A DNA stretch of 56,518 bases. Origin: a virus. The stretch spans positions 1-56,518 of IMG/VR virus record IMGVR_UViG_3300045988_112927; one strand, written 5' to 3'. The notes under the pieces are model-generated. The model was not told the DNA's origin. It saw only the letters and a list, made by a program, of their open reading frames with translations, and made no database searches. Positions 4,510-28,995 of this stretch are shown here, piece after piece (the stretch's first letter is position 1; each line of letters begins with the position of its first letter). A program made the position numbers and the translations under genes.

Positions 4510-5238
4510 GTGTATACAGTATATATTCATAGGAATAAAAAAAATCAAAAAGTGTATGTAGGATTAACTAAACAGACTCCTCAATCAAGGTGGAGAAGAA
4601 ATGGTGAAGGCTATAAAAATCAACCTAAATTTTGGAATGCTATTAAAAAATATGGTTGGGATAATTTTGAGCATATTATATTAAAAACGGGATTAACTGC
4701 AAAAGAGGCTGGTGAACTAGAACAAAATTTAATTAAAAGTTTTAATAGTATTCAAAATGGTTATAATGCCGATGAAGGCGGAATAATAACAAATCACTCT
4801 CAAGAAACCATAGATAAAATAAAAAAAGCTATGATTGGGAAGAATCATACACAAGAAACTAAAGATAAAATTAGTAATTCTAAAAATAATGATAAAAAAA
4901 TTGTAATTTGTATTGAAACTGGTATAGAATATGAAAGTGCAGCGTATGCTATGAAACAAACTGGGATTGATAGAAGTTCTATAAGTAAAGTTTGTTATGG
5001 TACTATGAATACTGCTGGTGGATATCATTGGTGTTTTAAAGGTCAAGAACCAATTTACACTAAAGATAAACGATTTAAATCAGTTATTTGTTTAAGCACT
5101 GGAAAAATATATCCTTCTATATCTGAAGCTGCTAGAGATACAAATTCTGACCCAAGCAATATAAAAAAAGTTTGTGATGGTAAATATAAAACTACAAATA
5201 AATTAAAATGGAAATATTATCAAGGTGAAGAAGAATAG
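4510..5238 (+). CDS. GIY-YIG homing endonuclease with NUMOD3 DNA-binding repeats (free-standing)
   Basis: The N-terminus VYIHRNKKNQKVYVGLT...R...GYNADEGG has the GIY-YIG layout. It is followed by tandem NUMOD3-like motifs (HSQETIDKIKKAM, HTQETKDKISNSK) and C-terminal DNA-binding-like repeats (SISKVCYG / SNIKKVCDG). The gene is extremely AT-rich and has its own RBS and a GTG start. Confidence 0.8.
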   Translation: MYTVYIHRNKKNQKVYVGLTKQTPQSRWRRNGEGYKNQPKFWNAIKKYGWDNFEHIILKTGLTAKEAGELEQNLIKSFNSIQNGYNADEGGIITNHSQETIDKIKKAMIGKNHTQETKDKISNSKNNDKKIVICIETGIEYESAAYAMKQTGIDRSSISKVCYGTMNTAGGYHWCFKGQEPIYTKDKRFKSVICLSTGKIYPSISEAARDTNSDPSNIKKVCDGKYKTTNKLKWKYYQGEEE

Positions 5239-5929: not shown

Positions 5930-8158
5930 ATGAAAGTAATAAAGAGAAATGGGACTCCAGTTCCATTTGATAAAACAAAAATTGTTGACGCTATCAACAG
6001 AGCATTTTTAGAAGTTGATGGAATTTTATATGAGACAGAAACAGCAGAAGATATTGCAGAAGATATTGAAGAATTAGTTAATAAAACAAATAGTGATATT
6101 ACAGTGGAAGCTATCCAAGACTGCGTAGAAGATTTTCTTATGCGCTCAGAGCGCCGTGACGTGGCTCGCGCATATATCCGTTATAGATATAAGAAAGAAA
6201 TCGCAAGACATTACTCAGACGATTTCATTGACGCAATCTCAGAGAAATTGCGCGCCACCAATGTGCAGAACCAGAACGCCAACGTAGACGAGCATTCATT
6301 CGGCGGCCGCATGGGAGAAGCTACTGATTTATTGACAAAACAATATGCTTTAGATTTCTGTGTATCTCCAATGGCTCGTGCGAATCATTTAAACAATGAG
6401 ATTTATATTCACGATTTAGGTTCATATGCTGTTGGCATGCATAACTGTTTATCTATTCCTTTTGATGATTTATTAGCTAAAGGATTTAATACAAGACAAA
6501 CTGATGTGCGCCCGGCTAATTCAGTAAATACCGCTTTACAGCTTGTAGCAGTTGTTTTCCAGCTACAATCTCTACAGCAATTCGGAGGAGTATCTGCTAC
6601 TCATTTAGATTGGACATTAGTTCCATATGTGCGTAAGAGTTTTACAAAGCATTTAAAAGATGGTATGAAATACTTTGAAAATAAATCTGAGTATAAATTA
6701 AAAAGATTTTATAAATGGTTAGAAAAAGATTGCCATAAAGATGGTACTGTTCATTTTGATGATACTGAAATCCAAAATTTACATCCTCAAGCTTGGGATT
6801 ATGCCATGGACATGACTTTAAGAGAAACTAAGCAGGCAGTAGAAGGCATGTACCATAACTTGAATACATTACAATCAAGAAGCGGTAATCAATTACCTTT
6901 CACCTCTATTAACTATGGAACCTGTACTTTACCAGAAGGTAGAGTTGTTATTGAAGCTTTGTTGGAAGGCTCTAAAGCTGGTGTAGGTAAATTCCATAAA
7001 ACTTCTATTTTCCCTTGTGGAATTTTCCAAGTTATGAAAGGTGTTAATAAAGAACCTGGTACACCTAACTATGATTTATTTAAGAAGGCATTAGAATCAA
7101 CTGCGCAAAGATTATATCCTAATTATGCGAATGTTGATTGGAGCGGGAACGCAGGATATGATAAGAACGACCCTTGCACATATTTCTCAACAATGGGATG
7201 TAGAACCGCTAATGGTTGGGATATTAATGGTTTCGGTCAAAGAAAAGACGGACGTGGAAATATTTGTCCTGTAACAATTATTATGCCTACACTTGCTATG
7301 AAAGCAAAGAAAGAAAGTGAACGCACTGGCGCAGATATTGTTGAAACATTTATGGGTATCTTAGATAGCAAGATTTTTGAAGCAAGAGATATGTTAATTG
7401 AAAGATTTGAATATATCTGTAAACAATCTCCTAACGCAGCTAAATTCATGTATGAAAATAATGTAATGGCTGGCTATATCCCAGAAGAAGGAATTAGAAG
7501 TGCGCTTAAGCATGGTACTCTTGCTCTTGGTCAGTTAGGACTTGCGGAAACTCTTCAAATCTTAATTGGTTGCGACCATACTGAATCAAAAGGTATGGAG
7601 TTAGCTAAGAGAATTGAACAGTTATTCAAAGACCGTTGTAATCAATTTAAGGAAGAGTATAAATTAAATTTTGGTGTTTATTATACACCTGCTGAAAATT
7701 TATGCTATACTGCTATGCAGAAATTCCAAAAGAGATATGGATATATTCCAAATGTTTCAGATAAAGATTTCTTTACTAACAGTATCCACGTTCCAGTATG
7801 GAAAGAAATGTCTCCTTTTGAGAAGATTGATATTGAGTCTCAGTTAACTGGATATTCTTCTGCGGGATGTATTACTTATATTGAGTTAGATTCCGGTATT
7901 AAGAATAATCTTGATGCATTGGAAGTTTTAGTTAATTATGCTATGGATAAGGACATTCCTTATTTTGCAGTTAATGTTCCAAATGATATGTGTGAAGATT
8001 GTGGCTATACCGATGAAATCAATGATGTATGTCCTCAATGCGGCAGTCGCCATATCCGAAGATTACGCCGAGTTACTGGTTACTTAACCGGAGATTATAA
8101 AACTGCTTTCAATAAAGGAAAACAGCAAGAAACTGAAATGAGAGTGAAACATCGCTAA
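5930..8158 (+). CDS. nrdD: anaerobic ribonucleoside-triphosphate reductase (class III RNR), NrdD
   Basis: 742-aa ORF. It has an N-terminal ATP-cone (KVIKRNGTPVPFDKTKIVDAINRAF). The C-terminal Zn ribbon is CEDCGY...CPQCGS, followed by the glycyl-radical motif RRVTGYL. The RBS GGAGG lies 6 nt upstream. Confidence 0.9.
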   Translation: MKVIKRNGTPVPFDKTKIVDAINRAFLEVDGILYETETAEDIAEDIEELVNKTNSDITVEAIQDCVEDFLMRSERRDVARAYIRYRYKKEIARHYSDDFIDAISEKLRATNVQNQNANVDEHSFGGRMGEATDLLTKQYALDFCVSPMARANHLNNEIYIHDLGSYAVGMHNCLSIPFDDLLAKGFNTRQTDVRPANSVNTALQLVAVVFQLQSLQQFGGVSATHLDWTLVPYVRKSFTKHLKDGMKYFENKSEYKLKRFYKWLEKDCHKDGTVHFDDTEIQNLHPQAWDYAMDMTLRETKQAVEGMYHNLNTLQSRSGNQLPFTSINYGTCTLPEGRVVIEALLEGSKAGVGKFHKTSIFPCGIFQVMKGVNKEPGTPNYDLFKKALESTAQRLYPNYANVDWSGNAGYDKNDPCTYFSTMGCRTANGWDINGFGQRKDGRGNICPVTIIMPTLAMKAKKESERTGADIVETFMGILDSKIFEARDMLIERFEYICKQSPNAAKFMYENNVMAGYIPEEGIRSALKHGTLALGQLGLAETLQILIGCDHTESKGMELAKRIEQLFKDRCNQFKEEYKLNFGVYYTPAENLCYTAMQKFQKRYGYIPNVSDKDFFTNSIHVPVWKEMSPFEKIDIESQLTGYSSAGCITYIELDSGIKNNLDALEVLVNYAMDKDIPYFAVNVPNDMCEDCGYTDEINDVCPQCGSRHIRRLRRVTGYLTGDYKTAFNKGKQQETEMRVKHR

Positions 8159-8168
8159 GGTGATTAAA

Positions 8169-8202
8169 AATTTGCTCTGTAGACTTTACTACAGAGCAAA
8201 TT
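8169..8202. promoter_or_regulatory. perfect 14-bp stem-loop between nrdD and nrdG
   Basis: AATTTGCTCTGTAG (8169-8182) pairs with CTACAGAGCAAATT (8189-8202), with a 6-nt loop. It is flanked by A-runs on both sides. No clear U-tract follows on the + strand. Confidence 0.5.
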
Positions 8203-8750: not shown

Positions 8751-9266
8751 ATGGCTAATTTTATTCAAGTGGCGAATAAAAACGTTTTAACCAATCTGCG
8801 AAATCACGAAATAGGCGAACTTGCTTATGTTACAGATGAAAAGAAAATGTATGTATATAATGGCGAATGGGAAATAATGGAATCTGATGATAGCTCATTA
8901 TCAATTCCATTATATGAAATGAATAAAATGATATTAAGTGAATTACCGGCATTAAATGATGAAGAAATAGAAAAAGCAAAAGCTGTTATTCGTGAATATG
9001 TTTCAAATAATGCAGATGATTATTATATGTTATTATGCCATGAATTAAAGTATTTTACAGTATTTGCACAAGATGAATATTGTGATGTAGATGAAACTAT
9101 TGAAAATGTTATTTTTGATTGCCTAAATTATGTTGGAACTGTTAAATCTGTTGAATTATCAAAAGATGGTGGAGCCATTGAAATTTGGGTAACAACACCA
9201 GAAGACGATACATATGTCATGTATTTGTTTGATTATGGAAGGGGAATCGTACCATGCAGAATTTAG
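8751..9266 (+). CDS. hypothetical protein: N-terminal module shared with the tail-fibre N-termini, plus an acidic C-terminal domain
   Basis: MANFIQV...IGELAYVTDEKKMYVYNGEWEI aligns with the 2050-aa fibre N-terminus MANVKFL...EGSLYVTAEKVGTEW...YLYYDTNGERI. The remainder is DE-rich with no known motif. Confidence 0.5.
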   Translation: MANFIQVANKNVLTNLRNHEIGELAYVTDEKKMYVYNGEWEIMESDDSSLSIPLYEMNKMILSELPALNDEEIEKAKAVIREYVSNNADDYYMLLCHELKYFTVFAQDEYCDVDETIENVIFDCLNYVGTVKSVELSKDGGAIEIWVTTPEDDTYVMYLFDYGRGIVPCRI

Positions 9267-9532
9267 TATTTTGTAAAATCAATTTATTCGATGCTCTTCA
9301 AACCGTTATGCTAGTTAATGAGAGCGGTGCTACAGAGCTCGCGCACGTTGATTTACAGAACTTAGGACATACGATTGCTTCTGTATGTAATGAAGAAAAA
9401 GTGTTCAATGTGCGTCTTAATGGTAGTAGAGAGTATACTGAAAGTATTGCTGATGATATTAGAGTAGCTAATACATTTATGTATCATTCAAATCACGAAA
9501 TAAATATCGAGGTATCAGTAGAAGGAGAGTAA
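9254..9532 (+). CDS. hypothetical protein (92 aa)
   Basis: The ORF overlaps the upstream gene by 13 nt. No motif recognised. Confidence 0.45.
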   Translation: MQNLVFCKINLFDALQTVMLVNESGATELAHVDLQNLGHTIASVCNEEKVFNVRLNGSREYTESIADDIRVANTFMYHSNHEINIEVSVEGE

Positions 9533-9533
9533 A

Positions 9534-9779
9534 ATGAAATATTTAGTATCAACAACAGAAGTGTATAGAGTAGGAACTGTAGAAGAAGTAGAGGCTCTTC
9601 ATGAGGAACTAAAAAATGATGCAAGATTTACTTTAGTTTCTTTTAGTTATAAATATAAATGCCAGAAGCAAAAAGGTGAAATCATTGATGAGTGGCAACA
9701 GGTAACTGTTAAGAAAGAGTTCAATGAAGAGAAAAACCCTTGCACAGAAGTAGAAATTAATTATGAGGTGAAATTCTAA
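9534..9779 (+). CDS. hypothetical protein (81 aa)
   Basis: The ORF is tightly packed, and its stop overlaps the next start (TAATG). No motif recognised. Confidence 0.45.
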   Translation: MKYLVSTTEVYRVGTVEEVEALHEELKNDARFTLVSFSYKYKCQKQKGEIIDEWQQVTVKKEFNEEKNPCTEVEINYEVKF

Positions 9780-10339
9780 TGGCAAAGTTTGAAAAAGTAT
9801 CAAGAATGGCTGATGTTGATTTTGAAATGCCAAGACGTAAAACTGCGCAAAGTGCTGGATATGATATGGTTGTAGCAGAAGATGTTACTATTTATCCTGC
9901 ATTTGAGTTAATCCAAAAGATGGCAGATACTTATGACCATAAAGTATACAGTTTGGAAGAGATTGCGGCAATGACAAAATCAATTCAAGCAAAACCAACT
10001 TTGGTATCTACTGGAGTTAAATGTAAAATGGATGGAGACACTTATCTTGAACTTAGTGTTCGCAGTTCTTGTCCATTAAAGCATTGGTTAATGTTGGCTA
10101 ACAGCGTTGGTATTATTGACGCAGATTATTATAATAACTCAGATAATGAGGGAGAAATTTTCTTCCAGTTCATTAATTTGAGTCCTTTCCCAATTCGATT
10201 AAAAAAAGGAGAAGCTATTGGTCAAGGTATTATCAAGCCTTATATTAAGACTGAAGATGATACTGCGAATGGTTTGCGCGAAGGTGGCTTTGGTTCTACC
10301 GATAGCGCAGCTCAACCGACCTTAGCTCCAGCAACCTAA
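9779..10339 (+). CDS. dut: dUTP diphosphatase (trimeric dUTPase family) with an insertion between motifs I and II
   Basis: Motif I is SAGYDM. Motif III is GIIDADYYN..GEI. The motif IV-like block is AIGQGII. Motif V is REGGFGSTD. At 186 aa it is about 35-50 aa longer than minimal dUTPases. Confidence 0.75.
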   Translation: MAKFEKVSRMADVDFEMPRRKTAQSAGYDMVVAEDVTIYPAFELIQKMADTYDHKVYSLEEIAAMTKSIQAKPTLVSTGVKCKMDGDTYLELSVRSSCPLKHWLMLANSVGIIDADYYNNSDNEGEIFFQFINLSPFPIRLKKGEAIGQGIIKPYIKTEDDTANGLREGGFGSTDSAAQPTLAPAT

Positions 10340-10845
10340 TGTCTAATTTATTAGCACTGGACCAAGCAAGTGTCACATCAGGATACGCCGTTTTTAAAGA
10401 CGGCGTTCTTGTTGATTATGGCAAATTTACTTTTGATGATGACATTGGAGACCGTTTAGTTAAAATAAGAAATAAAGTTCTTGCTTTAATTAAATCACAT
10501 GATATTAACGAAGTAGCTTTTGAAGATATTCAAATGCAATCCAATGTTATGAATAATGTCCAAACATTTAAAGTATTATCTGAGGTATTTGGAGTTATTC
10601 AAGAGTTAATTACAGAATTGGGAATAAAATATACAGTTGTACCATCTGCCACATGGAAGTCGACTCTAAATATCAAAGGACGCACTCGTCCGGAACAAAA
10701 GCGGAATGCGCAAGCTTATGTTTTAGAAACTTATAATGTTAAGGCTATACAAGATGTTTGTGATGCTATATGTATTGGTACTCACGTACTAAAAAGACCA
10801 GGTGTAGGAACCGTTTCGACTGATGGATATGATTGGTCTGATTAG
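10339..10845 (+). CDS. RuvC-like Holliday junction resolvase (phage-type)
   Basis: The N-terminus LALDQASVTSGYAVF places the catalytic Asp in the RuvC position. AFEDIQ supplies a Glu. The C-terminal DAICIG matches RuvC architecture. The start overlaps the dut stop (TAATG). Confidence 0.7.
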   Translation: MSNLLALDQASVTSGYAVFKDGVLVDYGKFTFDDDIGDRLVKIRNKVLALIKSHDINEVAFEDIQMQSNVMNNVQTFKVLSEVFGVIQELITELGIKYTVVPSATWKSTLNIKGRTRPEQKRNAQAYVLETYNVKAIQDVCDAICIGTHVLKRPGVGTVSTDGYDWSD

Positions 10846-10910
10846 TTAAAACTTACTCCTTCTATTTTTATATACTTAGAGAGGTATTATTGGGAATAGG
10901 AGGATTAAAT

Positions 10911-11357
10911 ATGGAATTTTTCTTAGAACACATTTTAGAAATCATATTTGGTCTAATCTCCGCTGGTGCTTTAGCCTTTTGTAAACATTTAGCTAACCAA
11001 CTGAAGGATTATAAAAAGCTTTTAGCAGCTCAAGATGTGAGTGAATCAAAAGCGCTGATTCAAAATGAAATAGTTCCATTGTCTAAAAAAATTGATGAAT
11101 TTAAAGTGATACTTCAAGAACATGAAGAAATTTCTTTACATCGTATAGAAATGATTGTTGAAATGTATCGCTTTGATTTAATTCAATCTTGTAAACATTA
11201 TTTACGACAAGGCTATATGACACAAGACCAATATGACCAACTTACCGAATTATATAAAGTCTACCATGGCTTAGGTGGAAATGGTCAGGCTCAGGAATAC
11301 TTTGAGAAAACAGCAGACCTTCCAATTCATAATAATGAGGAAGAATCGGAAAAATGA
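10911..11357 (+). CDS. single-pass membrane protein with coiled-coil C-terminus (function unknown; possible lysis or membrane-associated factor)
   Basis: The start is placed at the ATG at 10911, served by AGGAGG at 10898-10903 with 7-nt spacing. The ORF track's 10890 is a TTG. The hydrophobic segment is ILEIIFGLISAGALAF, followed by a charged helical region. Confidence 0.5.
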   Translation: MEFFLEHILEIIFGLISAGALAFCKHLANQLKDYKKLLAAQDVSESKALIQNEIVPLSKKIDEFKVILQEHEEISLHRIEMIVEMYRFDLIQSCKHYLRQGYMTQDQYDQLTELYKVYHGLGGNGQAQEYFEKTADLPIHNNEEESEK

Positions 11358-11402
11358 AAAAGGGCGTAACCTATATTATTTATAATAGGTTACGCCCTTT
11401 TT
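11357..11402. terminator. bidirectional rho-independent terminator at the convergence of the + and - modules
   Basis: AAAAAGGGCGTAACCTAT - 10-nt loop - ATAGGTTACGCCCTTTTT. The 14-bp GC-containing stem is flanked by an A5 run on one side and a T5 run on the other. It sits between the stops at 11357 (+) and 11404 (-). Confidence 0.7.
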
Positions 11403-11403
11403 C

Positions 11404-11808
11404 TTATTTATCAACTTGAATTTTATTTACATTTACACTTGCTTCAATTTGAGAAGTAATGTAAGCATTCAAATCTCCAAAAGCTTCAGATAAATATTCT
11501 TTTGCATCATCACTTAAGATTCCAAGTACAGCTTCTAATGTAGTATTAAAAGCAATCTTTTGCGCTTCTGCATCAAATTTACCCTGTTTCTTTAAAGACT
11601 CTACATATGTCTGATTAGTTGCTAACACACAAGCAGAAATTGTATCTGCTAACATTGTTGTGTATTTGTCAATCAAAGCGTTATCAGACTCTTCTACAAT
11701 TTTTGCACTTTTAACTTGAATGTATTTAACTAGATAAGTAGTTAAAACAGCAAGCAAAGGAATAATACATACCTCAAAAATTTGAGATAACATTTCTAAC
11801 CAATCCAT
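11404..11808 (-). CDS. holin-like small membrane protein (single N-terminal TM), last gene of the structural operon
   Basis: 134-aa ORF. The TM is CIIPLLAVLTTYLV, followed by a long hydrophilic helical tail. The RBS GAGGAGG is present. It sits at the operon end, where lysis genes typically lie. The assignment is tentative. Confidence 0.4.
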   Translation of the reverse strand: MDWLEMLSQIFEVCIIPLLAVLTTYLVKYIQVKSAKIVEESDNALIDKYTTMLADTISACVLATNQTYVESLKKQGKFDAEAQKIAFNTTLEAVLGILSDDAKEYLSEAFGDLNAYITSQIEASVNVNKIQVDK

Positions 11809-11814
11809 GAATAA

Positions 11815-12186
11815 TTAAGCCTCCTCTTTTTTAATAATCATAGTAGCAGAAACTCCATACTCAATTCCACTAAATTCACCTTCTGATTCAGCTATATCAT
11901 GTAGATTGATTAAACAAGAATTAAACTGAGTAAAATTAGTGCTTTCATATACGATACTTCCTTCCTCATTTTTTACAGTAATTTTTTGAATAGAATCTGG
12001 AATACAAAAATCACTAAGTTCTAAAAGAGTATCATTTTTTACTTGCGCACTATCAGCATCATATAAAGATAAATTTAAGTTTCGAGTTTTATTACCACGA
12101 GAATCTACTGCTATATTTTCTGTTAATTTGCCAATAGGATAGGTTTTTGAACTATCCTCGTTAATTATCAAATAATATTTTAGCAT
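11815..12186 (-). CDS. hypothetical protein (123 aa)
   Basis: An ATG start with AGGAGGG 7 nt upstream, driven by the consensus promoter at 12211-12239. No recognisable domain. Confidence 0.45.
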   Translation of the reverse strand: MLKYYLIINEDSSKTYPIGKLTENIAVDSRGNKTRNLNLSLYDADSAQVKNDTLLELSDFCIPDSIQKITVKNEEGSIVYESTNFTQFNSCLINLHDIAESEGEFSGIEYGVSATMIIKKEEA

Positions 12187-12210
12187 CTTAGTCCCTCCTA
12201 TTTTAGTTAT

Positions 12211-12239
12211 ATTATATCAAAAAATTTGGATAAAGTCAA
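12211..12239 (-). promoter_or_regulatory. consensus sigma70/SigA-type promoter on the minus strand (TTGACT - 17 - TATAAT)
   Basis: On the minus strand, TTGACT is the reverse complement of 12234-12239. A 17-nt spacer contains T6. TATAAT is the reverse complement of 12211-12216. The -35 lies inside the hairpin at the fibre gene's stop. Confidence 0.5.
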
Positions 12240-12255
12240 GTTTTTACTTGACTTT
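12232..12255 (-). terminator. hairpin spanning the stop codon of the 2050-aa fibre gene (10-bp stem, T-run downstream on the minus strand)
   Basis: AAAGTCAAGT (12232-12241) pairs with ACTTGACTTT (12246-12255). The fibre stop codon (12244-12246) is in the loop. On the minus strand the stem is followed by AUCCAAAUUUUUUG. Confidence 0.4.
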
Positions 12256-15200
12256 AATCCAAATTCGTCCGTTTACTTTAACCGGGTCTCTATCAGAGCC
12301 TTCTCCTCCACCCCACTCTTCATAAGTAGGAACGCAAGATACAGTACCAACGATTCTATCAGGATAATTAATAATTTCTTCACGAGTCATAATATCGACC
12401 GTTCCGCCCGGAGCGGCGCAAACACAATCACCAGGTTTATAATTATTTCTATCTTGATAAGTATATACAAGAACACGACCTGCTACTGCTATTGGAGTTT
12501 TAGCCTTTTCAGTCTCGCCTTGAGAGAATCCCCATGTATCTGAAGAAACACCGGCGAAATGTTGAAGTCTTTCAGTTGTTTTGGTTAAACTATCTTTTCC
12601 AGTTTCAGTTAATACATATCCATATTCGGTTGTATCAGCTTCTCGACACTCTGCGTAGTCATTCCATACTGCGCCAGTTACTGAATTACCTTCAATCCAA
12701 ATTCTCTTCCATGCATCTGCAGTTCCTGAGCGTACTGCACGATACCATAATTGGAAATGGTTTGGGTTACAGAAAATTTCTTGCCAGTAAGTAGTTCCCC
12801 ATGACATTCTTAATACTTGGACATTTGCTACAGAACCATTTTCATCACCATTACCAGCTGGGAAACTCCATAAGTTTCTGTTATTAGAACTACCTGCATA
12901 AGCATTACCAGCTGCCGTTCCCAAAGGAATTTGACCTGAAAAGTAGGTTAAAGTCTGATTATAAGCTGGAGCGCTTTGATTTGCTTTTACTTCAGTTGCC
13001 GGACCATTGAATTTAGCGGCTATAACGGTACCATTCGTCATGTCAACTTTAAAACGTTCATTAGCACCATCATGTAATCTAAAATAATTATCATAACTAT
13101 CTATACAAATTGTTTTATAAGAAGATGTCGCAGGATTTAATTTTATCTCTCCGCCTTCATGAGCAGTGTTTTGTGCAGTTACCGTTAAATATGTTGTAGT
13201 TAAAGCACCAGTCATGGTGTCTCCAGACTTTTTAACATAACGACCATCAAGAGTATTCATATATGTTGCAGTATTTAACAAAGTACCACTTGAAGCTGGC
13301 AAATAATTAGTATAATTAGCATCAGAGGTTGTAGCTATTAATGCATTATACCCTTCTCCTGCGCTATATAAATAAATTTCTCCTCTTTGGTTTCCTGTAG
13401 TTTCGTTAACTTTATAAGCATTACCAAGAGTCATTCTCATAAAACCTATATTGGCGGCTTGATAATAATAGTAACATCTTAATCTTGCTCCATCAGAGCT
13501 GTAAATTTGTCCATCGGTACTATTTATAAGAGGTAAATACCAGTTAACATCTTGATTTGCTGTTCTTGTAGTAGAATATACAAGTCTACCAAGATGAACT
13601 CCCATATAACCAGAAGCATTGGGAATCGTTACGGTTCTATTAGAAGTAGCAACTGCGGACTGAATATTAGTATATGCTGTTCTAGTACCATAAATCCATA
13701 AATTTCCTCTGGCATTATGAGCACCGCTTGTAGAAGCTACATCTTTATTATTACCAATTCTTAATACCATAACACCAGCAGTACCATTTGTAGTTGTAAC
13801 AGTGCCATCTGAGGCAGTAGATTGAGTTGCGGCTGTACCTATTTTAGATACATACATACCTAAAGTTTCAACAGAAGATTCTCTAAACCATAATCCAACA
13901 TTAATTGCAGCAACATCTATATAAGTATTACCATTAAATGAAGATGTTCCCTTTACATATAGCTTATGTCCAAAGTCTACCCCACCAATGCTTACATTAT
14001 TCAGATGTGCTTGCGCGCTACTGTTAACATAGTAAGTTGTTCCATTGGCAAAATATGTAATACCATTATGAGTAACATTGCCATCAAATTTAGTGGTACC
14101 ATTTACATATAATCTATATGAAGTGTTTCTACTAGTTTGTCCAAGAGCTAAATATGGTAGTGAAGCAGCTCCTGTTGTATGGTCCATGATTAAACCATAC
14201 ACCGAATAAGTAGTTTGTTTTGCACTATTATAATTACATCTAATAGAGAATACTCCACCCTCATTAGCTAATTGCCAAGAAGCATTTCCACCTCTCCATA
14301 ACTCAATACCGACATTACCACTACCACCATTTAATTCAGAACTTACGATTAATTGTCCAGTTACATTCGATGAACTAGATGCGTTACCTTCAATTCTTAA
14401 TCTACCAGTATTAGAACTTAATGACATTCTTGCTGTTGGCTTAGTTGTTGCTGCAACACTAGCATTAGAAGTAGCCTCCCAAATCCATCCATATCCTGCG
14501 GCATTCTCAATTAAACTTCTTCTTGCCCATGAAGTAACTTCTGTCGTCGTAGATGGCTTTCCATTAGTAGGACATAATCCATCTTGTGGGTCAGACATAT
14601 AATCTACCCATGTATAATAATTAGGATGATACCAATAGATACGACCATTAGTATTCCCACCAGCTCTGTTGAGCATCAATCTATTTCCACTAATATATCC
14701 AAGACCACTAATAGAAGCAACGTTAGTTGAACCTCTTTTGAAAATCCAACCTCTATTACCTGTATCACTCATAGTGAAATAAGTAGCCCAGTCGCTAGTT
14801 ACATATGAATGAGTTCCCGCACTTGAAGTCTGTCTAAAATAAATAGCATAGCTTGAAGATGCATTATATAAAGTAATACCGCCATCACTACCAGAGCCAC
14901 CCATATTAGTATGTAACCATCTTGTGTACATACCATTAAAATAGTTACCTGAAGTACCAATAGATTGAGCATTAGCTTGCCCAACTTCTGCTTTAACTGG
15001 AATTACAGCACCAGCAGTGGTAACTTGTATACCAATTCTATTTGCTATAGTATCTGCATTAGCTTCAATATTAACAGCACCATCTGCTAATAAATATAAA
15101 ACCTCTGTTCCACCTGCAACTGACATGCTTTGCGCAGACTCTCCGGCGCCAATAATAGTAACTCCACCACCACCAATAGAAATACCATTGCCGTGAGCAT

Positions 15201-21297: not shown

Positions 21298-21516
21298 TCA
21301 TTTCTGACCAGTTGGAGCTTTTACTTCTCTCCAGTTTTCAAGTTCACCTTCTGGAATCATAACTGACTCGACATAATTCTTATTATCTCTAGTAAGCTTT
21401 AAGCCTTCATCAGCCTGAAGAAAATATTTACGAGTATAGTAAATATCTTCTAAATGAACGGGACTAGTAATAGTCCCGTTCGTACCAAGGTAAACATAAT
21501 AAACAGTTTTTGTCAT
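21298..21516 (-). CDS. hypothetical small protein (72 aa)
   Basis: An ORF between two structural genes on the same strand. No motif recognised. Confidence 0.4.
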   Translation of the reverse strand: MTKTVYYVYLGTNGTITSPVHLEDIYYTRKYFLQADEGLKLTRDNKNYVESVMIPEGELENWREVKAPTGQK

Positions 21517-21534: not shown

Positions 21535-24500
21535 TTATGCGCTAACATAGCTAATAGTGCCGACAATAGTTGAACCGCTTGAATCTACAGCTAATGAAGG
21601 TAAGATTTCTGCCTCCACTCTTGCCTTAACAGCATCACTTACGTCACCGAAGAATGTTACTGTCATAATCTTACGAGTTCTATTCTGCGCGAAAGGTTGA
21701 GTTCCGAAATCAGCGATTCTAGTAGGAGCTCCTTTCTTACCGAAGTTAACTACGAATGCTGGTTCGTTACCATTACCAATACCAGAAGAATAAGCAAACG
21801 CCTGCGCACCGATATATTCCACAGAAGCTGGAATATTTAATGTTACAGTTGTTGAAGAGCGAAGCGCACCAGAGAATACGTAATTATCAATGTAAGTCAA
21901 AGATGAATTACTGAAATTCAATGGAGCTAAATATGAACATTGTGAGAAGCAACTTTCACCTAAGTAAGTAACTGATTTTGGTAAATCAAAATATTTCAAA
22001 GATGTTAAGTTTTGGAATGTCATTCTAGCTACTTCTAGTACTTGAGGTGTTCCATCCCAGAAGACATGAGTCACTGGAGATGCTTGGAAGCCCGCAATAG
22101 AGATTACAGGTTTATTATTATAAGTAGTAGGAAGAGTTACTTTACCTGATAATGAGATATTAGGTTGTAATCTATAACCACTTGTAATTACGCCTGTTAG
22201 AGGGTCTTCAAAGTCATACTCGATAAAATCGAAATATTTAGAATCTGTTGCACTAGCGTATACGCTTTCTTTTAAGAATACTCCATAGAACTGAGTATTC
22301 TGAGTTGCTAAAATTGAACTGATATTTACTAACTTAGCTTCATTCTCATTTGTTACGATAAGTTGTTTAATATTTTGAGTCCATCCTAAGAATCTATATC
22401 TTTCTTCGTCTCCTAAGTCATCTTCTGGTATAGAAGGAATAATACTTGGAGCACTTAATACTTCACCATGAGTAATGTTTTCGCTATACCAAGTTGTCAT
22501 ACTACTCTCGTTTGCGCCAGCCATATACTCAATAGTCCATTTATGAACTGTGAAGATTGCATAGAATGTGTAATCTGTTTTACCAGACTCTAACTTCAAA
22601 GCATTCCATGCGGCAGCCTGTTCCTCCGCACTTGCAGACGCGCTCGCAATCAAACCACTCATATCATTAGTTGTTGACCAACCGTGGAAATCGTAGTTAT
22701 CTTTTACTGGAGCATAAATTTCATATGGATTTGTGAACCATTCTCCAGAGCCAATCTTCTGAACTGAAGGTTCAGTATTATTAGCATCCTTGTTTGGAAC
22801 GTAATTCCATGTTCCATCGTCTTCTTGCAAGATGAAACGAGCTGAATTTGCAGGAGTAACAGTCTTGAAGAATACTGTTAAACCAGGGAAGTTCTTAACT
22901 AAAGTATTTCTTACCCAAAGTTCATCTATAGCCTCATCATTAGCAACATACATAATACCAGTAATGTTAGGAATTGTACTTCCTTCATTTGTACTGATAT
23001 ATAAACCATTAGTGATGAACTCTTTGAACATTTCTACATCAGCAATCTGATTGATATCTTCATCAGAGATTGTTTCATCAAGTCTATATAATTCACCATT
23101 TAATACCTGGATATCAAATGTTGAAGCATTATAAGTATATTCAGAGAAACCATAGTGTCCGTTGTCAACGAAGTATTTAGCTGAGCTATCGTATACATCA
23201 CCTTCAACTAACTGAACATATGGAGACCAGTTAACTTTAGTCATTGCAATTTGAGAATATTGAGCAGTTTGCTTACTTCTCAAATCAAAATATTTCTTTA
23301 AGAGTTTGTAACTATCATATCCAAGAGCACCACCTAAAAGGCTTAAGGTGCTAATAGACGTAGTTCCTTCACCCTCGAACATACCTTGTAAGTATAGTCC
23401 TTTTTCCGCAACTAATTCTCCATGAGCATTTGCTTCTGGGTAATGATACTCAGTAATTAAGTGAGTAAGCAAGTTCGCTTCAGTTAATGATAATCTTGTG
23501 ATTGATGTTGGTAAATACAATGTATTAAGAGCAACACCATCAGCGAATGAGATATCTGTGAAGTTAGAACCAGTAGCACGGAAGTTCTGTAATTTTTCAC
23601 AAGATGTCAAATCAAGTACTGGAGTACCTGTATTTATTGTGATGTTACAGAAGTTAACCTCTTTTAATAGTGGCATACCTGTTGCGTCTCTACCTGCTGG
23701 GATTGATGGCTGGTTAACTTTATTATTATACCATGTATAATAATTCTTTCCATCAACTGTTACAACAGTGTTGTTTCCAGAAACATCTACGCCCTCTGGA
23801 ACTTCCATAAGTCCGTCGTAACCCATCTTCAAAGTAGTTAACTTAGAAGCGTCGCCAGAGATTTCAAACTCTTGCCAGTATAAGTTACTCATATCACCTA
23901 AGTCAGCCATTTGATTTAAGCCGTATACATATAACAACTGCTCTGGGTAGTTATTACTCTTACGAACACCATTTTCAATAGCGTCGATATTGAATTTAAC
24001 TGGATTAATACCATCATACTTCTTAGATGGATAAGCCTCGTTGTCGTCACTTACTGTTACATAAGAGCTTCGAATTGGAGTAAGATTTAACCAATACTCT
24101 GCATCAAACAAGTTGGTCTTCTTTCCATCTGCGCCATAGTATGGAGCACCAGAAGTTTCAACCCAGATATCTGAAGTCTTTGTAGCGTTGTTAGCAGCCA
24201 CACGACCACGGATACGATTAGCACCACCACGTTGGTAGTTACCTTGATTTAACCAAGAGTCAATATACTCAATACGGTTTGTCAAGAACTGCTGTCTTGA
24301 TAATGAACGGTCACCTTGTAATGCATAGAAATAAGTTCCGTTTGCATCATATGTGTAAGTACCAGTAGTATCAGAAGAAATATGACCTGTAGTACCATCT
24401 TTGTAACCTTTACTATTTGTAATAGTAATATACTTGTAATACTCATCTAAGTTGGTTGCAATTAAAGGTCTTTCACCTCTCATTGCGATACAACCAGTTA

Positions 24501-27500
24501 CTTTAGGGTCGAATTTATACCAACCTTCAATTCTATCAATGCTATATAATGGAGCATTCTTCAACTGTGACCAACTTACATTATTAGTAACACCTTTTAA
24601 GTGTTTATACTTCATAAGGATGTAAGAATCTTTGAAGTACTTGTAGAAGTTATTCCAAAGAACTGAATCAGAAGTTGAATAGTTACCAGCTTCAGTAGCA
24701 TCAACATTATATTCGAATGAAGGAATACCGGTATTGTTAATACCTAACTGTGTATCAATATCATAGAAGATTGGATACCATACATAGTCTCCGCCTGCTT
24801 TTTGAGGACCCCAAGAAGCCCACATTGCGTTCTTACCACGTGAGTCGTAACACTCAAATACTTCAGTCATAATAAAATAAGTAGCTAAGTATTCGATATC
24901 AAAGTGGTCTGCGAGTTCATTTACGAACTTAGCAGCACGATATTCTTTAGTATCATGAGTATATGTCTTATTACCATACTTAACCTGGATAGCTTCATAG
25001 AATTTACCTGGTTCATAATTTGCACTTGTAACCTCGGCTACAGTTACACATTTACCAGCTTCTGTTTGACTTCCATCGTAGTTATAATATGTCTTGCCTT
25101 CTGTAAAGTAAGAATCCTCACAAATCTTAACGATTAAATCTGTCTTTGACTTATAAGAATCGTCCTCTACTAATCTATAATATGCGCATGAATTATCAAA
25201 GTCTTGTTCACTTCTTAATACATAAGAACCATTTACGAGTTCGTAGAACTTGTTAGCTTCATACATTAAGGTTGAATCAACTGCATAAGCATTTACATAA
25301 CTTTGAGTACTGCTATCATATTTGTAGTAAACCTGATTAAATACATAATCATCATCAGATAATACATACTGTCCATCTTCTGTAAAGATATAATATGTAC
25401 CTGGAACATATAAAGTGTTACCAACATTTACTTCTTCGTAAGTACCTTGAGAAGGAACCATATCAGTATTTGTTGACCATACCCATTTATTTACTTTCTC
25501 CCAGTTTTCATATAACTTGTAAAGAAGATTGCGGCCGCCCTCATATTCTCCGGCTGATGGGTCAAAGTAGTACTCTTCACCATACTCCTCAACGATTGCA
25601 GCAATATCATCTGGTTTAGCTTCATTCATTGCATATAAAACATCAAGAGCGTCTTCATTACTATTGTAACGATATTCTACATGGTCTGCAACAATTGGAG
25701 CTTTTGCTGAAGTGAACTCATTAGCTACTCCACTTGGAGCCTTAAAGCTTAACTCCATTCTTCCCCATGGGTCTCTAAATGAACAGAAACCACGGTTATT
25801 GTTTGAGAATTCCCAACATTCTACAATGTCACGAACTTTCTTGCCATCAAGATAATTAGCAGTTACTTTCTTGCTTGGCTTGAAACCATAGCATTCATCA
25901 GAACCTTTATCAAGAAGCATTCTATACAAACCGATGAACTGATAACTTCCATCAGATTTCTTATGGAAAGCTAATACTGGGAAACCTTGAACTGAAGTTC
26001 TATATTCATTCCAGTTAATTTCTCCAGTTACAGAACTCTTTAATTCGTCTGTATTACTCAATGCGCCTGCCGCAACATAGTCCTGTAAAGGATGCTTTGA
26101 ATAAGCATTATATACTAAGTTAGCAAAACCGCCATTGTATGAACCAGAAGACTCCATGAAGTCAACTTTCATAGTCCATTTATTAGTTCCATTTGTATAG
26201 TTATCTAAATACCAATAAGACTGACGAGATTCCTCATCTCCTAATTCAATTTCCTTGTTTGCAATCTTCTCTTGGTCATCAAGATAAGTCTGCGCCCAAG
26301 GTCCTCTATTTAAGAAGATATGAATTCTTTCTTGCTCATCTGCATCATATTTGGTCTTTGTCTTAATTTTATAATTACGTCTTGGATAGAACTCTGAAGA
26401 TGTACCTTGTACAGCCATTTCAATGTTTTCACCTTTCCAAGAAGGACAGTGATGTTTATAGTAAAGCTTAACAGCTGCTTCTTTTTCTTCTGCCGTAGAT
26501 TTATCAGTGAATAAGCCATCAGCCTTAGCCAATTCTTCCAATTCACCAGAAGCATAAGCTCTATCTAAACCTGTATTAACAAATTCAACTCCAATGCTTA
26601 ACTTAGTTTTCTTTGAATAAGAAAGCTTATCGTTATTATTAGTATTGGTTGTATCAAAAATGATATAAGGCATAATTGGAGCATCTGGATGGTCTTCATT
26701 ATACTTAATCATATTTGTATAGTTGAACTGATATTCATTGATTGCTAAGTTTTCTTCTGCTAACTTATTTTGGTCGTACATAGTAACGTCTCTTAAGTCT
26801 ACAGAATAGTTTGTTACAATATCATTTACATTCAAATCAGTGTTATAAACTCTGATTTTGTATAAGTCAATATCGCAATAGTTAGAGTTAAATACCATTG
26901 CGGCAGAGTTGATAATAAACTGTCCTGCTACAGTAGATTTAATAACTCCAGTGATAACACCATTGATATAGATATACATTAACTTAGAAGTATGAGAATA
27001 AACCATACTAATGTTAACCATCTTATCTTCAACGTAGTTTACGTTTACAGTGTTTGTTCCGTTTGAGAAGAATGCGTCCTGAGGTCCTAAAGCGAAACCT
27101 ACTGCACTATTTTCATCGCCTGAGTAGTATCCGCAGATAACTCGGTCAAGTGAGATTTCCTTCTGAACGTAATCAAACTCTAAGCTATCATATTCAACAC
27201 GAGTTTCATCTACATCTAACTCATAGATAGGTAAGTAATATTGTAAGAAAGCATCGTAGTTACTATACTTACTCTGAGCCTTAAATGCTGTATAGAATTT
27301 ATCGTCTGATTTATAACGAGTTACATTGTGGATTAAGTTTGAGTAATCCTGTACGTTTCTAACCTTGAATTGAACTTCAATAGAGTTAGACTGCTTAGAA
27401 CTATCTGTTGAAGCAAATGTCATAGCTCCTAAAGGAATAGAGAATTTTGCTCCATTTGAAATTCTTAAGCAAGTATTGTTATCATCATCAAGAACCCAAC

Positions 27501-28995
27501 CATTGTTATACCAGTTGAAATCTTCAAAAGTAGCTTTAATATTACCATCTTTTGTAGTCCAAATCTGTCTGTTAACAACTGATTCATTGTTTGAACGTCC
27601 TCTTGACTCGAATTCAAGTTTCAAGTAATCCTGTTTTACAGGCTCCATTGTACGGTTAGGGTCCTGAGACACCATGAATGAAATGCTTCTTTCAACATCG
27701 CCGCAACCAATAGAGTATCTATTAACCATATCAAGGTCAGCATCTGTGATTTCAAAATAATTCCACTTGTCTAATGAAGAGGTATTGATATCACGAGGTG
27801 AACTTGCAATTTCAGTTCCGTTTTTCTTTAAGGTAATACGAGCACTTGCAGTATTAGCAGGGTCATATACTAAGAAAGGAATCTTAATTGGGTCATAGTT
27901 ATAATACTCACTCTGATAATTACCTAACCAGATAACTGGCTCAGTGTTTCCAGCTTCGAATACACCAATCTCGAATTCGATTGGGTCTACCATAATTCCC
28001 TCTGTCCATTTACCGCTTACTACGATTGCTTGCCATAATTCAATACGAATCTTGTGAGAACCATGAGTAGCAACAGATGAAGGAACCATATAACTCTGAT
28101 AGTTTTCAGCACTAGCAGTTAACTGCTTTGTAGCAATAAGCTGGTCATCAAAGTAATATTTCAAAATCTTATTCATAGCACCAATAGCATTACATTGTAA
28201 CTGTACTGTTGTTGGTGTGTAACGATTCAATGCTGAGAAGTTTGCGCTCTGGGTTAAAACTAACTGAGAAGTTACAACTTCAATATTCTTTGAAGTAGAC
28301 TCTCCGGAGTTTACGCCGGCCGCATACATAGTTAATCTTGTGGTTGTATCTGCTCTTAAATGACTTCCTAAATCGAAAGTTGAATTAACGCCAGATTGAA
28401 CATCCAAAATACCCTGTGCATATAAAGTATATGCAGTACCAGATTTTGCTTCCAATGTCCAGTGAACTGTTAATTTATCGTCCATTTGAGAACCATCAAC
28501 ATCAACACCAGAAGTAGCTAAGAATGAAATTGCAATAGCTTGACCATTAATCAAGTTTGAAGTCTCTGGTGACTTAATCTGAATACCAATTTTCTTGGCA
28601 AAGCTTGCGCCACCACCTCCGCCGCCGCTACCACCGGAACCACTAACAGACATAAGTGTACAAATCATAATTCTTTCTTCGGCATTTACTTCTTGTACAC
28701 GATAAAAAATTCCGTCTTGATTAAGAATTAAATCTCCCTCTTTTGGAGTAATATCCTCTTCTAAGTGGTCGAATTCTAAAGTGTATAAAGAGTATTCATC
28801 AGGTTCGATTGTAGGAGCATTACCATATAATAAAGCAACGCCACTTCCACCCATGGCTACTCTTGTATCCATATCAAGGTCGAAATAAATTTTTCCCGTA
28901 TCAGATGCGAAATAAACATAACCAGGGTTCTTACCAGTACTCTGGATTTGAGCATCTGTGCCTGTGACAGGTCTAAATCTTGTCTTATCTGTCAT
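21535..28995 (-). CDS. giant fibre/adhesin-like structural protein (2486 aa) with C-terminal Listeria-Bacteroides repeats and BspA-type LRRs
   Basis: The N-terminal module is RPVTGTDAQIQSTGKNPGYVYFASDTGKIYFD, shared with other fibres. A Gly-rich linker GSGGSGGGGGGAS follows. The C-terminus contains two Y.F.GW...FY(A/G)(I/V)F repeats (Flg_new-like). It also has IP.SV.YIG..AF, LPKSVTYLGESCFSQCSYL and LTYIDNYVFSGA segments (LRR_5/BspA-like). Confidence 0.7.
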   Translation of the reverse strand: MTDKTRFRPVTGTDAQIQSTGKNPGYVYFASDTGKIYFDLDMDTRVAMGGSGVALLYGNAPTIEPDEYSLYTLEFDHLEEDITPKEGDLILNQDGIFYRVQEVNAEERIMICTLMSVSGSGGSGGGGGGASFAKKIGIQIKSPETSNLINGQAIAISFLATSGVDVDGSQMDDKLTVHWTLEAKSGTAYTLYAQGILDVQSGVNSTFDLGSHLRADTTTRLTMYAAGVNSGESTSKNIEVVTSQLVLTQSANFSALNRYTPTTVQLQCNAIGAMNKILKYYFDDQLIATKQLTASAENYQSYMVPSSVATHGSHKIRIELWQAIVVSGKWTEGIMVDPIEFEIGVFEAGNTEPVIWLGNYQSEYYNYDPIKIPFLVYDPANTASARITLKKNGTEIASSPRDINTSSLDKWNYFEITDADLDMVNRYSIGCGDVERSISFMVSQDPNRTMEPVKQDYLKLEFESRGRSNNESVVNRQIWTTKDGNIKATFEDFNWYNNGWVLDDDNNTCLRISNGAKFSIPLGAMTFASTDSSKQSNSIEVQFKVRNVQDYSNLIHNVTRYKSDDKFYTAFKAQSKYSNYDAFLQYYLPIYELDVDETRVEYDSLEFDYVQKEISLDRVICGYYSGDENSAVGFALGPQDAFFSNGTNTVNVNYVEDKMVNISMVYSHTSKLMYIYINGVITGVIKSTVAGQFIINSAAMVFNSNYCDIDLYKIRVYNTDLNVNDIVTNYSVDLRDVTMYDQNKLAEENLAINEYQFNYTNMIKYNEDHPDAPIMPYIIFDTTNTNNNDKLSYSKKTKLSIGVEFVNTGLDRAYASGELEELAKADGLFTDKSTAEEKEAAVKLYYKHHCPSWKGENIEMAVQGTSSEFYPRRNYKIKTKTKYDADEQERIHIFLNRGPWAQTYLDDQEKIANKEIELGDEESRQSYWYLDNYTNGTNKWTMKVDFMESSGSYNGGFANLVYNAYSKHPLQDYVAAGALSNTDELKSSVTGEINWNEYRTSVQGFPVLAFHKKSDGSYQFIGLYRMLLDKGSDECYGFKPSKKVTANYLDGKKVRDIVECWEFSNNNRGFCSFRDPWGRMELSFKAPSGVANEFTSAKAPIVADHVEYRYNSNEDALDVLYAMNEAKPDDIAAIVEEYGEEYYFDPSAGEYEGGRNLLYKLYENWEKVNKWVWSTNTDMVPSQGTYEEVNVGNTLYVPGTYYIFTEDGQYVLSDDDYVFNQVYYKYDSSTQSYVNAYAVDSTLMYEANKFYELVNGSYVLRSEQDFDNSCAYYRLVEDDSYKSKTDLIVKICEDSYFTEGKTYYNYDGSQTEAGKCVTVAEVTSANYEPGKFYEAIQVKYGNKTYTHDTKEYRAAKFVNELADHFDIEYLATYFIMTEVFECYDSRGKNAMWASWGPQKAGGDYVWYPIFYDIDTQLGINNTGIPSFEYNVDATEAGNYSTSDSVLWNNFYKYFKDSYILMKYKHLKGVTNNVSWSQLKNAPLYSIDRIEGWYKFDPKVTGCIAMRGERPLIATNLDEYYKYITITNSKGYKDGTTGHISSDTTGTYTYDANGTYFYALQGDRSLSRQQFLTNRIEYIDSWLNQGNYQRGGANRIRGRVAANNATKTSDIWVETSGAPYYGADGKKTNLFDAEYWLNLTPIRSSYVTVSDDNEAYPSKKYDGINPVKFNIDAIENGVRKSNNYPEQLLYVYGLNQMADLGDMSNLYWQEFEISGDASKLTTLKMGYDGLMEVPEGVDVSGNNTVVTVDGKNYYTWYNNKVNQPSIPAGRDATGMPLLKEVNFCNITINTGTPVLDLTSCEKLQNFRATGSNFTDISFADGVALNTLYLPTSITRLSLTEANLLTHLITEYHYPEANAHGELVAEKGLYLQGMFEGEGTTSISTLSLLGGALGYDSYKLLKKYFDLRSKQTAQYSQIAMTKVNWSPYVQLVEGDVYDSSAKYFVDNGHYGFSEYTYNASTFDIQVLNGELYRLDETISDEDINQIADVEMFKEFITNGLYISTNEGSTIPNITGIMYVANDEAIDELWVRNTLVKNFPGLTVFFKTVTPANSARFILQEDDGTWNYVPNKDANNTEPSVQKIGSGEWFTNPYEIYAPVKDNYDFHGWSTTNDMSGLIASASASAEEQAAAWNALKLESGKTDYTFYAIFTVHKWTIEYMAGANESSMTTWYSENITHGEVLSAPSIIPSIPEDDLGDEERYRFLGWTQNIKQLIVTNENEAKLVNISSILATQNTQFYGVFLKESVYASATDSKYFDFIEYDFEDPLTGVITSGYRLQPNISLSGKVTLPTTYNNKPVISIAGFQASPVTHVFWDGTPQVLEVARMTFQNLTSLKYFDLPKSVTYLGESCFSQCSYLAPLNFSNSSLTYIDNYVFSGALRSSTTVTLNIPASVEYIGAQAFAYSSGIGNGNEPAFVVNFGKKGAPTRIADFGTQPFAQNRTRKIMTVTFFGDVSDAVKARVEAEILPSLAVDSSGSTIVGTISYVSA

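Follow-up and report, generated by a model that had tools for sequence, protein, structure and literature searches.

A leucine-rich-repeat cassette at the C terminus of a giant tail-module protein as a candidate receptor-binding module of large gut phages

The viral DNA analyzed here (positions 1 to 56,518 of the IMG/VR virus record IMGVR_UViG_3300045988_112927, a stretch of 56,518 nucleotides hereafter called the window) carries on its minus strand a gene for a 2,486-amino-acid protein, which ends in a cassette of two units resembling the B-repeat of internalin B (InlB), a β-hairpin connector, a leucine-rich-repeat (LRR) solenoid, and a small cap. The same exact protein is encoded on a 190,353-bp ENA contig (ERZ27229705 k119_78680), where it is annotated as 'hypothetical protein'. 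An earlier sequence-only reading, made by a model, had described the product as a phage fiber ending in domains borrowed from bacterial adhesins, namely Listeria–Bacteroides (Flg_new) repeats followed by BspA-type LRRs. The open reading frame (ORF) and all of the motifs that it quoted are present, the motifs at residues 2101–2400, with the LRR motifs having been given out of sequence order. Its feature boundary at position 22695 cuts the first B-repeat-like unit in half, as this unit starts near residue 2051 (position 22845).

The window is phage DNA. In its plus-strand block lie genes for NrdD/NrdG, a kinase, a dUTPase, RuvC, and a DnaE-type polymerase that shares ~39% identity with the polymerases of SPbeta-like phages, of Enterococcus phages EF1 and VRE9, and of Phass-1. 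The giant gene lies between the tape-measure and holin genes and on the same strand, within a phage tail module. From the tape measure toward the holin, the minus-strand products are 1,649, 127, 906, 997, 129, 1,884, 310, 597, 2,486, 72, 671, 199, 2,050, and 123 amino acids long, of which those of 906 and 997 amino acids have counterparts in the tail regions of Enterococcus phages EF1, VRE9, and H1, phage Phass-1, and Enterocloster phages.

Judged from sequence profiles together with a predicted structure, the identification of the C-terminal domain as a BspA-type LRR_5 solenoid is solid. The LRR_5 model (PF13306) matched residues 2321–2404 with 52.7–55.2 bits (E 8e-15), compared with a Pfam gathering cut-off of 27.7 bits, and LRR motifs lie at residues 2338–2356 (LPKSVTYLGESCFSQCSYL), 2365–2377 (SLTYIDNYVFSGA), and 2386–2400 (LNIPASVEYIGAQAF). 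Searching the PDB by sequence returned the BspA-type LRRs of 4fs7 and 4gt6, PcpA (4cp6), and TpLRR (6mlx). An AlphaFold model of the last 421 residues, with a mean predicted local distance difference test score (pLDDT) of 80.7 and scores of ~87–96 for most 10-residue blocks of the LRR, showed short strands at regular spacing followed by a helix-plus-strand cap, and the best Foldseek matches of the LRR model in the PDB were 6mlx, 4fdw, 4fd0, 4gt6, 4fs7, and 4cp6 (probabilities 0.75–1.00). We counted ~six repeats from the sequence and the model. In the hairpin that leads into them, V2245, Y2246, and G2273 are invariant in a family alignment (A2).

Two InlB-B-repeat-type β-grasp units precede this solenoid and, to judge from family profiles and a structural model, are real despite sub-threshold scores. 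Unit 1 carries the motifs YDFHGWSTT (residues 2101–2109) and YTFYAIF (2142–2148), and unit 2 carries YRFLGWTQN (2200–2208) and TQFYGVF (2234–2240). The 2,486-amino-acid sequence alone fails to qualify as Flg_new because its scores fall below the curated thresholds: Flg_new (PF09479) reached 16.5–21.9 bits against a cut-off of 27, with unit 1 alone matched, and TIGR02543 reached 16.6 against 20.95. Among the 28 family members whose homologous B-repeat regions make up alignment A3, half (14) matched Flg_new at E ≤ 0.01, with a best E of 2.4e-9, and eight matched TIGR02543. When the A3 profile was compared with the whole PDB, internalin B was the sole match (a weak one, at E 0.007–0.06), with unit 2 aligned to the InlB B-repeat of 1m9s, 2y5q, and 2y5p. 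Aligning the two units with each other by hhalign gave a probability of 95.7% (E 9.9e-9), indicating tandem homologous repeats. An AlphaFold model of residues 2055–2270 (pLDDT 92.3) had 7nms, 7pv9, and 2y5p as its best PDB matches in Foldseek (probability 0.97–1.00), with a template-modeling (TM) score of 0.69–0.74 normalized on 2y5p but Foldseek E values of only ~0.01–0.05; the lower structural neighbors were other β-grasp adhesin modules.

The two domain calls of the sequence-only reading therefore fared differently. The LRR_5 call held by the Pfam score, the PDB sequence matches, and the Foldseek matches. The Flg_new call failed the Pfam and TIGRFAM thresholds when this one sequence was considered and was upheld by its homologues, by the InlB profile match, by the similarity between the units, and by the structural model. 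The reading had said that it should be given up if LRR_5 and Flg_new matches were lacking and the predicted fold was something other than an LRR solenoid; what we obtained instead were matches to these families and a solenoid resembling solved BspA-type structures.

The term 'fibre' finds no support in the protein as a whole, a giant of many domains built around a CotH kinase-like core, in which we detected neither fiber-type domains nor fiber-type repeats. Scanned against Pfam and PHROG at full length and in segments, it matched LRR_5, Flg_new, CotH, and two PHROGs that lack an assigned function (residues 120–555) and nothing else, with no trimeric coiled coil, β-helix, collagen-like repeat, or known fiber family recognized. 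Matches of the N-terminal 1,200 residues to single-chain variable fragment (scFv) antibodies in the PDB were rejected as an artifact of the Gly/Ser linker that follows the N-terminal domain. A second stretch, at residues ~1777–1850 (window positions 23446–23667, minus strand), looks LRR-like by eye (LKEVNFCNITINTGTPVLDLTSCEKLQNFRATGSNFTDISFADGVALNTLYLPTSITRLSLTEANLL) and matched no Pfam model even at E ≤ 10.

We detected no export or anchoring signal of a bacterial surface protein in the 2,486-amino-acid sequence. Its N terminus is polar, its maximum 19-residue Kyte–Doolittle hydropathy is 1.34, and we found in it no signal peptide, transmembrane segment, LPXTG or [SN]PxTG motif, lipobox, type IX secretion system (T9SS) signal, or choline-binding anchor, with Pfam likewise returning no anchoring domain. 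Because the signal peptide, transmembrane segment, and LPXTG motif are missing, display in the manner of a bacterial adhesin is impossible, and the protein falls outside the class of BspA-like cell-surface adhesins from which the sequence-only reading had drawn its analogy. The missing secretion and anchoring signals fit delivery of the protein as part of a virion.

Table 1. Features of the giant gene, its product, and the surrounding tail module, in window positions.
Feature	Residues	Positions	Strand	Basis
Giant tail-module protein gene, 2,486 aa	1–2486	21535..28995 (stop codon included)	-	ORF list and translation
N-terminal domain, followed by Gly/Ser linker	1–116	28648..28995	-	Identity 0.83 in the 68–75% tier
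Gly/Ser-rich linker, VSGSGGSGGGGGG	117–129	28609..28647	-	Read from the sequence
CotH kinase-like domain	1300–1680 (Pfam core 1353–1469)	23956..25098	-	Pfam, family conservation
Flg_new/InlB B-repeat-like unit 1, with helical insert	~2051–2151	22543..22845	-	Flg_new 20–22 bits; hhalign against unit 2; model
Flg_new/InlB B-repeat-like unit 2	~2152–2243	22267..22542	-	Family-profile PDB alignment to InlB B-repeat; Foldseek
β-hairpin N-cap/connector into the LRR	2244–2283	22147..22266	-	Model strands 190–198 and 205–213, pLDDT ~90
BspA-type LRR_5 solenoid, ~6 repeats	2284–2449	21649..22146	-	Pfam, PDB sequence matches, Foldseek, model strands
C-terminal cap, helix plus strand	2450–2486	21538..21648	-	Model helix 389–398, strand 415–419
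Conserved 72-aa ORF directly downstream of the giant gene		21298..21516	-	Gene call on the 190,353-bp ENA contig
Tape measure, >2,430 aa, runs off the window		49222–56514	-	
Holin		11404–11808	-	

Searching with the whole protein recovered 139 homologue clusters, more than 100 of which contain proteins of 2,100–2,800 amino acids that align end to end at 27–97% identity; the longest of their contigs reaches 229 kb. Family members reside on 140–230-kb gut and rumen phage contigs, IMG/VR viral contigs included, the cassette is always C-terminal, and every named member is called 'hypothetical protein'. Precomputed Pfam annotation places LRR_5 in most homologues and CotH, Flg_new, or BppU_N in some distant ones. 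Among 50,697 deposited phage genomes we found no close relative: the best whole-protein match had 26% identity over 39%, the LRR part matched one unannotated fecal fragment, and the B-repeat part matched none.

Within IMG/VR, the cassette occurs at 20 loci on contigs of 25–192 kb (12 of the 20 exceeding 80 kb). At eight of these loci it ends an ORF under the standard code, and this ORF spans ~2,490–2,534 amino acids in the six that are uncut by a contig end. Loci L016–L027 (on contigs of 25–178 kb) seemed to carry the cassette as a stand-alone gene, in ORFs of 312–590 amino acids under genetic code 11, a candidate that we rejected on finding that a stop-recoded reading restores the long ORF. 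At each of these loci (match at ~9001–10200) code 11 fragments the giant gene, and reading TAG as sense restores it at 10 loci and reading TGA as sense at two (L020 and L022); the recoded ORFs that end in the cassette are 2,463–2,787 amino acids long at the 11 complete loci and at least 1,039 amino acids at L021, where the contig stops within the gene. The window itself is read in the standard code, with 18 TAA, four TAG, and three TGA stop codons, and it contains no tRNA gene. With standard-code, TAG-recoded, and TGA-recoded loci all present, the lineage of the window's phage therefore spans three genetic codes, in line with how a survey of stop-codon recoding describes large gut phage clades (bioRxiv 10.1101/2021.08.26.457843). 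At locus L001, the gene appears split into products of 1,937 and 562 amino acids. We rejected this split as a module boundary, as it stems from a 1-nucleotide indel in a T run after which the homology continues in the +1 frame; the break (6190–6250, AAGATTTTTTGATATT) most likely arose in sequencing or assembly, a genuine frameshift site being the less likely cause.

The end of the protein evolves faster than the rest of it. In the tier of homologues with 68–75% identity, the LRR retains an identity of 0.53 and the cap 0.39, compared with 0.66–0.86 for the other segments. At every divergence tier these two segments show the lowest conservation, and the cap is the most variable of all, with its identity falling to 0.07 in the distant tiers.

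This divergence occurs within an architecture that is itself old. Homologues in more than 100 clusters, with identities as low as 27% and three genetic codes among their phages, keep this architecture entire, cassette included. Any acquisition of the cassette must therefore be ancient, and the sequence comparisons indicate that the cassette is an old component, vertically inherited in this phage lineage, and not a recent loan; the proposal that it was borrowed from bacterial adhesins is unsupported or overstated. The nearest cellular LRR_5 proteins have 25–37% identity over 15–40% of the 421-amino-acid query, and none of them has Flg_new. When that 421-amino-acid cassette was used to search sequence representatives, the best 150 of 94,146 matches included only a handful of proteins that matched the cassette in one stretch; the long ones among these (2,185–2,513 amino acids) carry it at their C terminus, as the phage family does, the others being short or fragmentary. 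Giant multi-LRR_5 proteins swamped this search, which is compatible with the existence of a bacterial protein containing two B-repeats and an LRR_5 domain. Of four such giant metagenomic LRR_5 proteins that we scanned, one had Flg_new at threshold and another had Flg_new_2 below threshold, which lends modest support to the idea that the domain pair occurs on bacterial surface proteins.

On balance, we lean toward reading the cassette as the receptor-binding module at the distal end of the giant tail protein, in which the B-repeats would serve as a stalk and the LRR as a ligand-binding head. The N-terminal domain of ~116 residues and its Gly/Ser linker would anchor it at the tail tip or baseplate, the long multidomain body, including the CotH kinase-like domain, would form an arm, and the two β-grasp units would hold out the LRR, whose six-repeat surface could then bind a component of the host cell envelope and thereby set host specificity. 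The position of the cassette at the C terminus and its status as the fastest-evolving part of the protein make the host-recognition role predicted by the sequence-only reading plausible.

The host of the proposed tip is probably a member of the Bacillota, most likely Clostridia-like. Relatives in the family occur in metagenome-assembled genomes (MAGs) binned as Clostridia, Ruminococcus, Erysipelotrichaceae, and Mollicutes; the nearest cellular LRR_5 matches that carry a name belong to Clostridia or Clostridiales; and Enterococcus and Enterocloster are the hosts of the cultured phages whose tail proteins are similar.

Several considerations weigh against a receptor-binding role. That the 2,486-amino-acid protein is present in the virion is something we infer, and the scans found in it no fiber, trimerization, or known receptor-binding-protein domain. 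Relaxed constraint, and not selection on host range, could underlie the faster evolution of the tip. The binning of contigs of ~165–175 kb into MAGs is weak evidence of a host, as these contigs are probably mis-binned phage genomes. Moreover, conservation in the giant protein is highest in its CotH-like domain, so the protein may be primarily an enzyme that the LRR does no more than target.

The last of these points leads to an explanation that we regard as rather unlikely, in which the cassette is not the primary receptor binder but a targeting module that holds the CotH kinase-like domain on a component of the host envelope or of the phage, which this domain would phosphorylate or modify in some other way. 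CotH (PF08757) passed its Pfam threshold when residues 1300–1680 were excised (25.6 bits against a cut-off of 23.8), and all 13 of the family members tested matched it, with a best E of 1e-9. The match in this protein is borderline, as a 500-amino-acid cut scored 21.9 bits and only positions 156–267 of the 322-position profile were covered. Across the family, D1384-x4-N1389 and D1412-x-D1414 are invariant, a D-x4-N ... D-x-D pattern that may correspond to the CotH catalytic motif. Neither sequence nor profile searches of the CotH-like region matched any chain in the PDB. By tblastn, residues 1331–1602 matched the Bacteroides phage p00 group, and gp353 of Bacillus phage G was also matched. In Bacillus subtilis CotH, D228 and D251 are catalytic (PMC7821199), and fusions of CotH to binding domains recur in phage proteins, where they have been described as unstudied (PMC8008677). 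A kinase acting outside the cell would be without ATP, which counts against this explanation, and an envelope-targeted enzyme is in any case compatible with the receptor-binding reading and not exclusive of it.

A bolder form of the same idea, to which we give only a slim chance, is that the virion bears an active CotH-type enzyme that the B-repeat and LRR module docks on a component of the host envelope or on a mucosal ligand. If it is correct, the tail would bring with it a targeted phosphotransferase, able to modify the cell surface or tail proteins during adsorption, an activity that would be conserved across a lineage of ~140–230-kb gut phages using three genetic codes.

It is also improbable, in our estimation, that the LRR is an internal docking or assembly surface for another tail component (such as the 72-, 671-, or 199-amino-acid protein) and that the receptor binder lies elsewhere. 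LRRs are generic scaffolds for protein–protein interaction, the 1,649-, 1,884-, and 2,050-amino-acid giants of the tail module could carry receptor binding, and a small conserved ORF follows the giant gene in both the window and L001, where an ORF of 73 amino acids similar to that of 72 occupies the equivalent position (7955–8176); its product is a possible accessory or assembly factor. However, an interface with a co-evolving partner is rarely the most variable part of a protein, as the LRR and cap are here.

That the cassette adheres to something other than the host, such as mucin glycans, epithelium, or other cells, and thereby promotes retention in a favorable niche and not infection, is pure speculation, to which we assign little likelihood. 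The structural neighbors of the B-repeat model do include the Listeria lmo0835 mucin-binding domain, the lectin-like YwfG, and a Treponema denticola sialidase, and BspA-type LRRs, like InlB, bind eukaryotic cells, but a distal and fast-evolving C terminus is the pattern expected of host-range determinants and not of a protein whose ligand is as conserved as mucin, and the known mucus-adherence domains are immunoglobulin-like decorations of capsids.

A receptor-binding module of this kind would combine parts that are each familiar from other systems. The solenoid shares its repeat type, by profile and by fold, with BspA-family LRR_5 surface proteins (Tannerella BspA, Treponema TpLRR, and pneumococcal PcpA), and with the Bacteroides and Faecalibacterium LRRs solved by structural genomics (4fs7, 4fdw, and 4gt6), which were its top structural and sequence matches. 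In contrast to the BspA family, the phage protein has only ~six repeats and carries them at the end of 2,486 amino acids, with no signal for secretion or anchoring. With the B-repeat of internalin B (2y5p and 2y5q), the phage units share the β-grasp fold and the GY.F.GW ... LYA.F signature; unlike it, they score below the curated profile thresholds, and unit 1 has a helical insert. The domain order is also reversed relative to InlB, in which the LRR comes first, and the phage LRR is of the BspA rather than the internalin type.

Among phage proteins, the giant resembles the modular baseplate and receptor-binding proteins of siphophages that infect Gram-positive bacteria, for example the BppU/BppL proteins of TP901-1 and the evolved Dit and Tal proteins that bear carbohydrate-binding modules, both in the position of its gene, downstream of the tape-measure and distal-tail genes, and in its presumed logic of N-terminal attachment, arm, and variable C-terminal head. 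Our scans yielded no above-threshold match to BppU or BppL in the 2,486-amino-acid protein; BppU_N (PF10651) is among the Pfam domains of one distant relative (P0143), somewhere along its length. Compared with TP901-1-type proteins, the phage protein is ten times larger, includes a CotH-like domain, and has an LRR head in place of a lectin-like β-sandwich or jelly-roll head.

A second point of comparison is provided by the targets of diversity-generating retroelements (DGRs) in the Bacteroides phage p00/Hankyphage group, which likewise join a CotH domain to a C-terminal ligand-binding module within a phage structural region, although that module is a C-type lectin and not, as here, B-repeats plus LRR_5. 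Comparing every ORF of the window with at least 100 amino acids to PHROG yielded no reverse-transcriptase family, with no dedicated search for DGRs made. The structural neighbors of the model also include entries of UniProt/BFVD named 'Leucine-rich repeat protein' from uncultured gut phages (Siphoviridae sp. and Myoviridae sp. ct*, and the crAss-like cr273_1). These are weak matches (E 5e-4 to 0.1, TM 0.2–0.4) to shorter proteins of 280–1,478 amino acids, all uncharacterized, and none was shown to have the CotH, B-repeat, and LRR_5 architecture. LRR proteins of gut phages are thus already in the databases under automatic names, yet unstudied; literature searches for LRR_5, BspA, and the Listeria–Bacteroides repeat in phage tail proteins returned no relevant study, which is no proof of absence.

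Receptor-binding proteins decide which bacteria a phage infects, and few are known from large uncultured gut phages. Against this background, the family, with more than 100 clusters and no name beyond 'hypothetical protein', offers a concrete and testable candidate. Its C-terminal module is small, confidently modeled, and fast-evolving, and could serve to fish for the host and the receptor of a lineage of ~190-kb phages. If the LRR solenoid does bind a receptor, it would extend the known repertoire of phage receptor-binding heads. The conserved CotH kinase-like domain within a tail protein is of interest in its own right, as the combination has been noted in the literature and never studied.

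Elsewhere in the tail module, the length of the tape measure implies a very long tail. The 1,649-, 1,884-, 2,050-, and 997-amino-acid proteins (within window positions 12244–49106, minus strand) have almost no recognizable domains, and in an all-against-all BLAST of the window's tail proteins, aimed at anchor or LRR domains in common, a shared domain was found in the 199- and 671-amino-acid proteins only (30% identity). At ~10000–12300 the genes change strand and the GC skew changes sign, and the cumulative GC skew reaches its maximum at ~11–12 kb, compatible with an origin or terminus of replication or with a mere strand switch between modules. On the plus strand, a GIY-YIG/HNH-type homing endonuclease gene (4510–5238) lies directly downstream of the gene for the DnaE-type polymerase, and in the related Enterococcus phages EF1 and EF5 the polymerase genes are interrupted by homing endonucleases.

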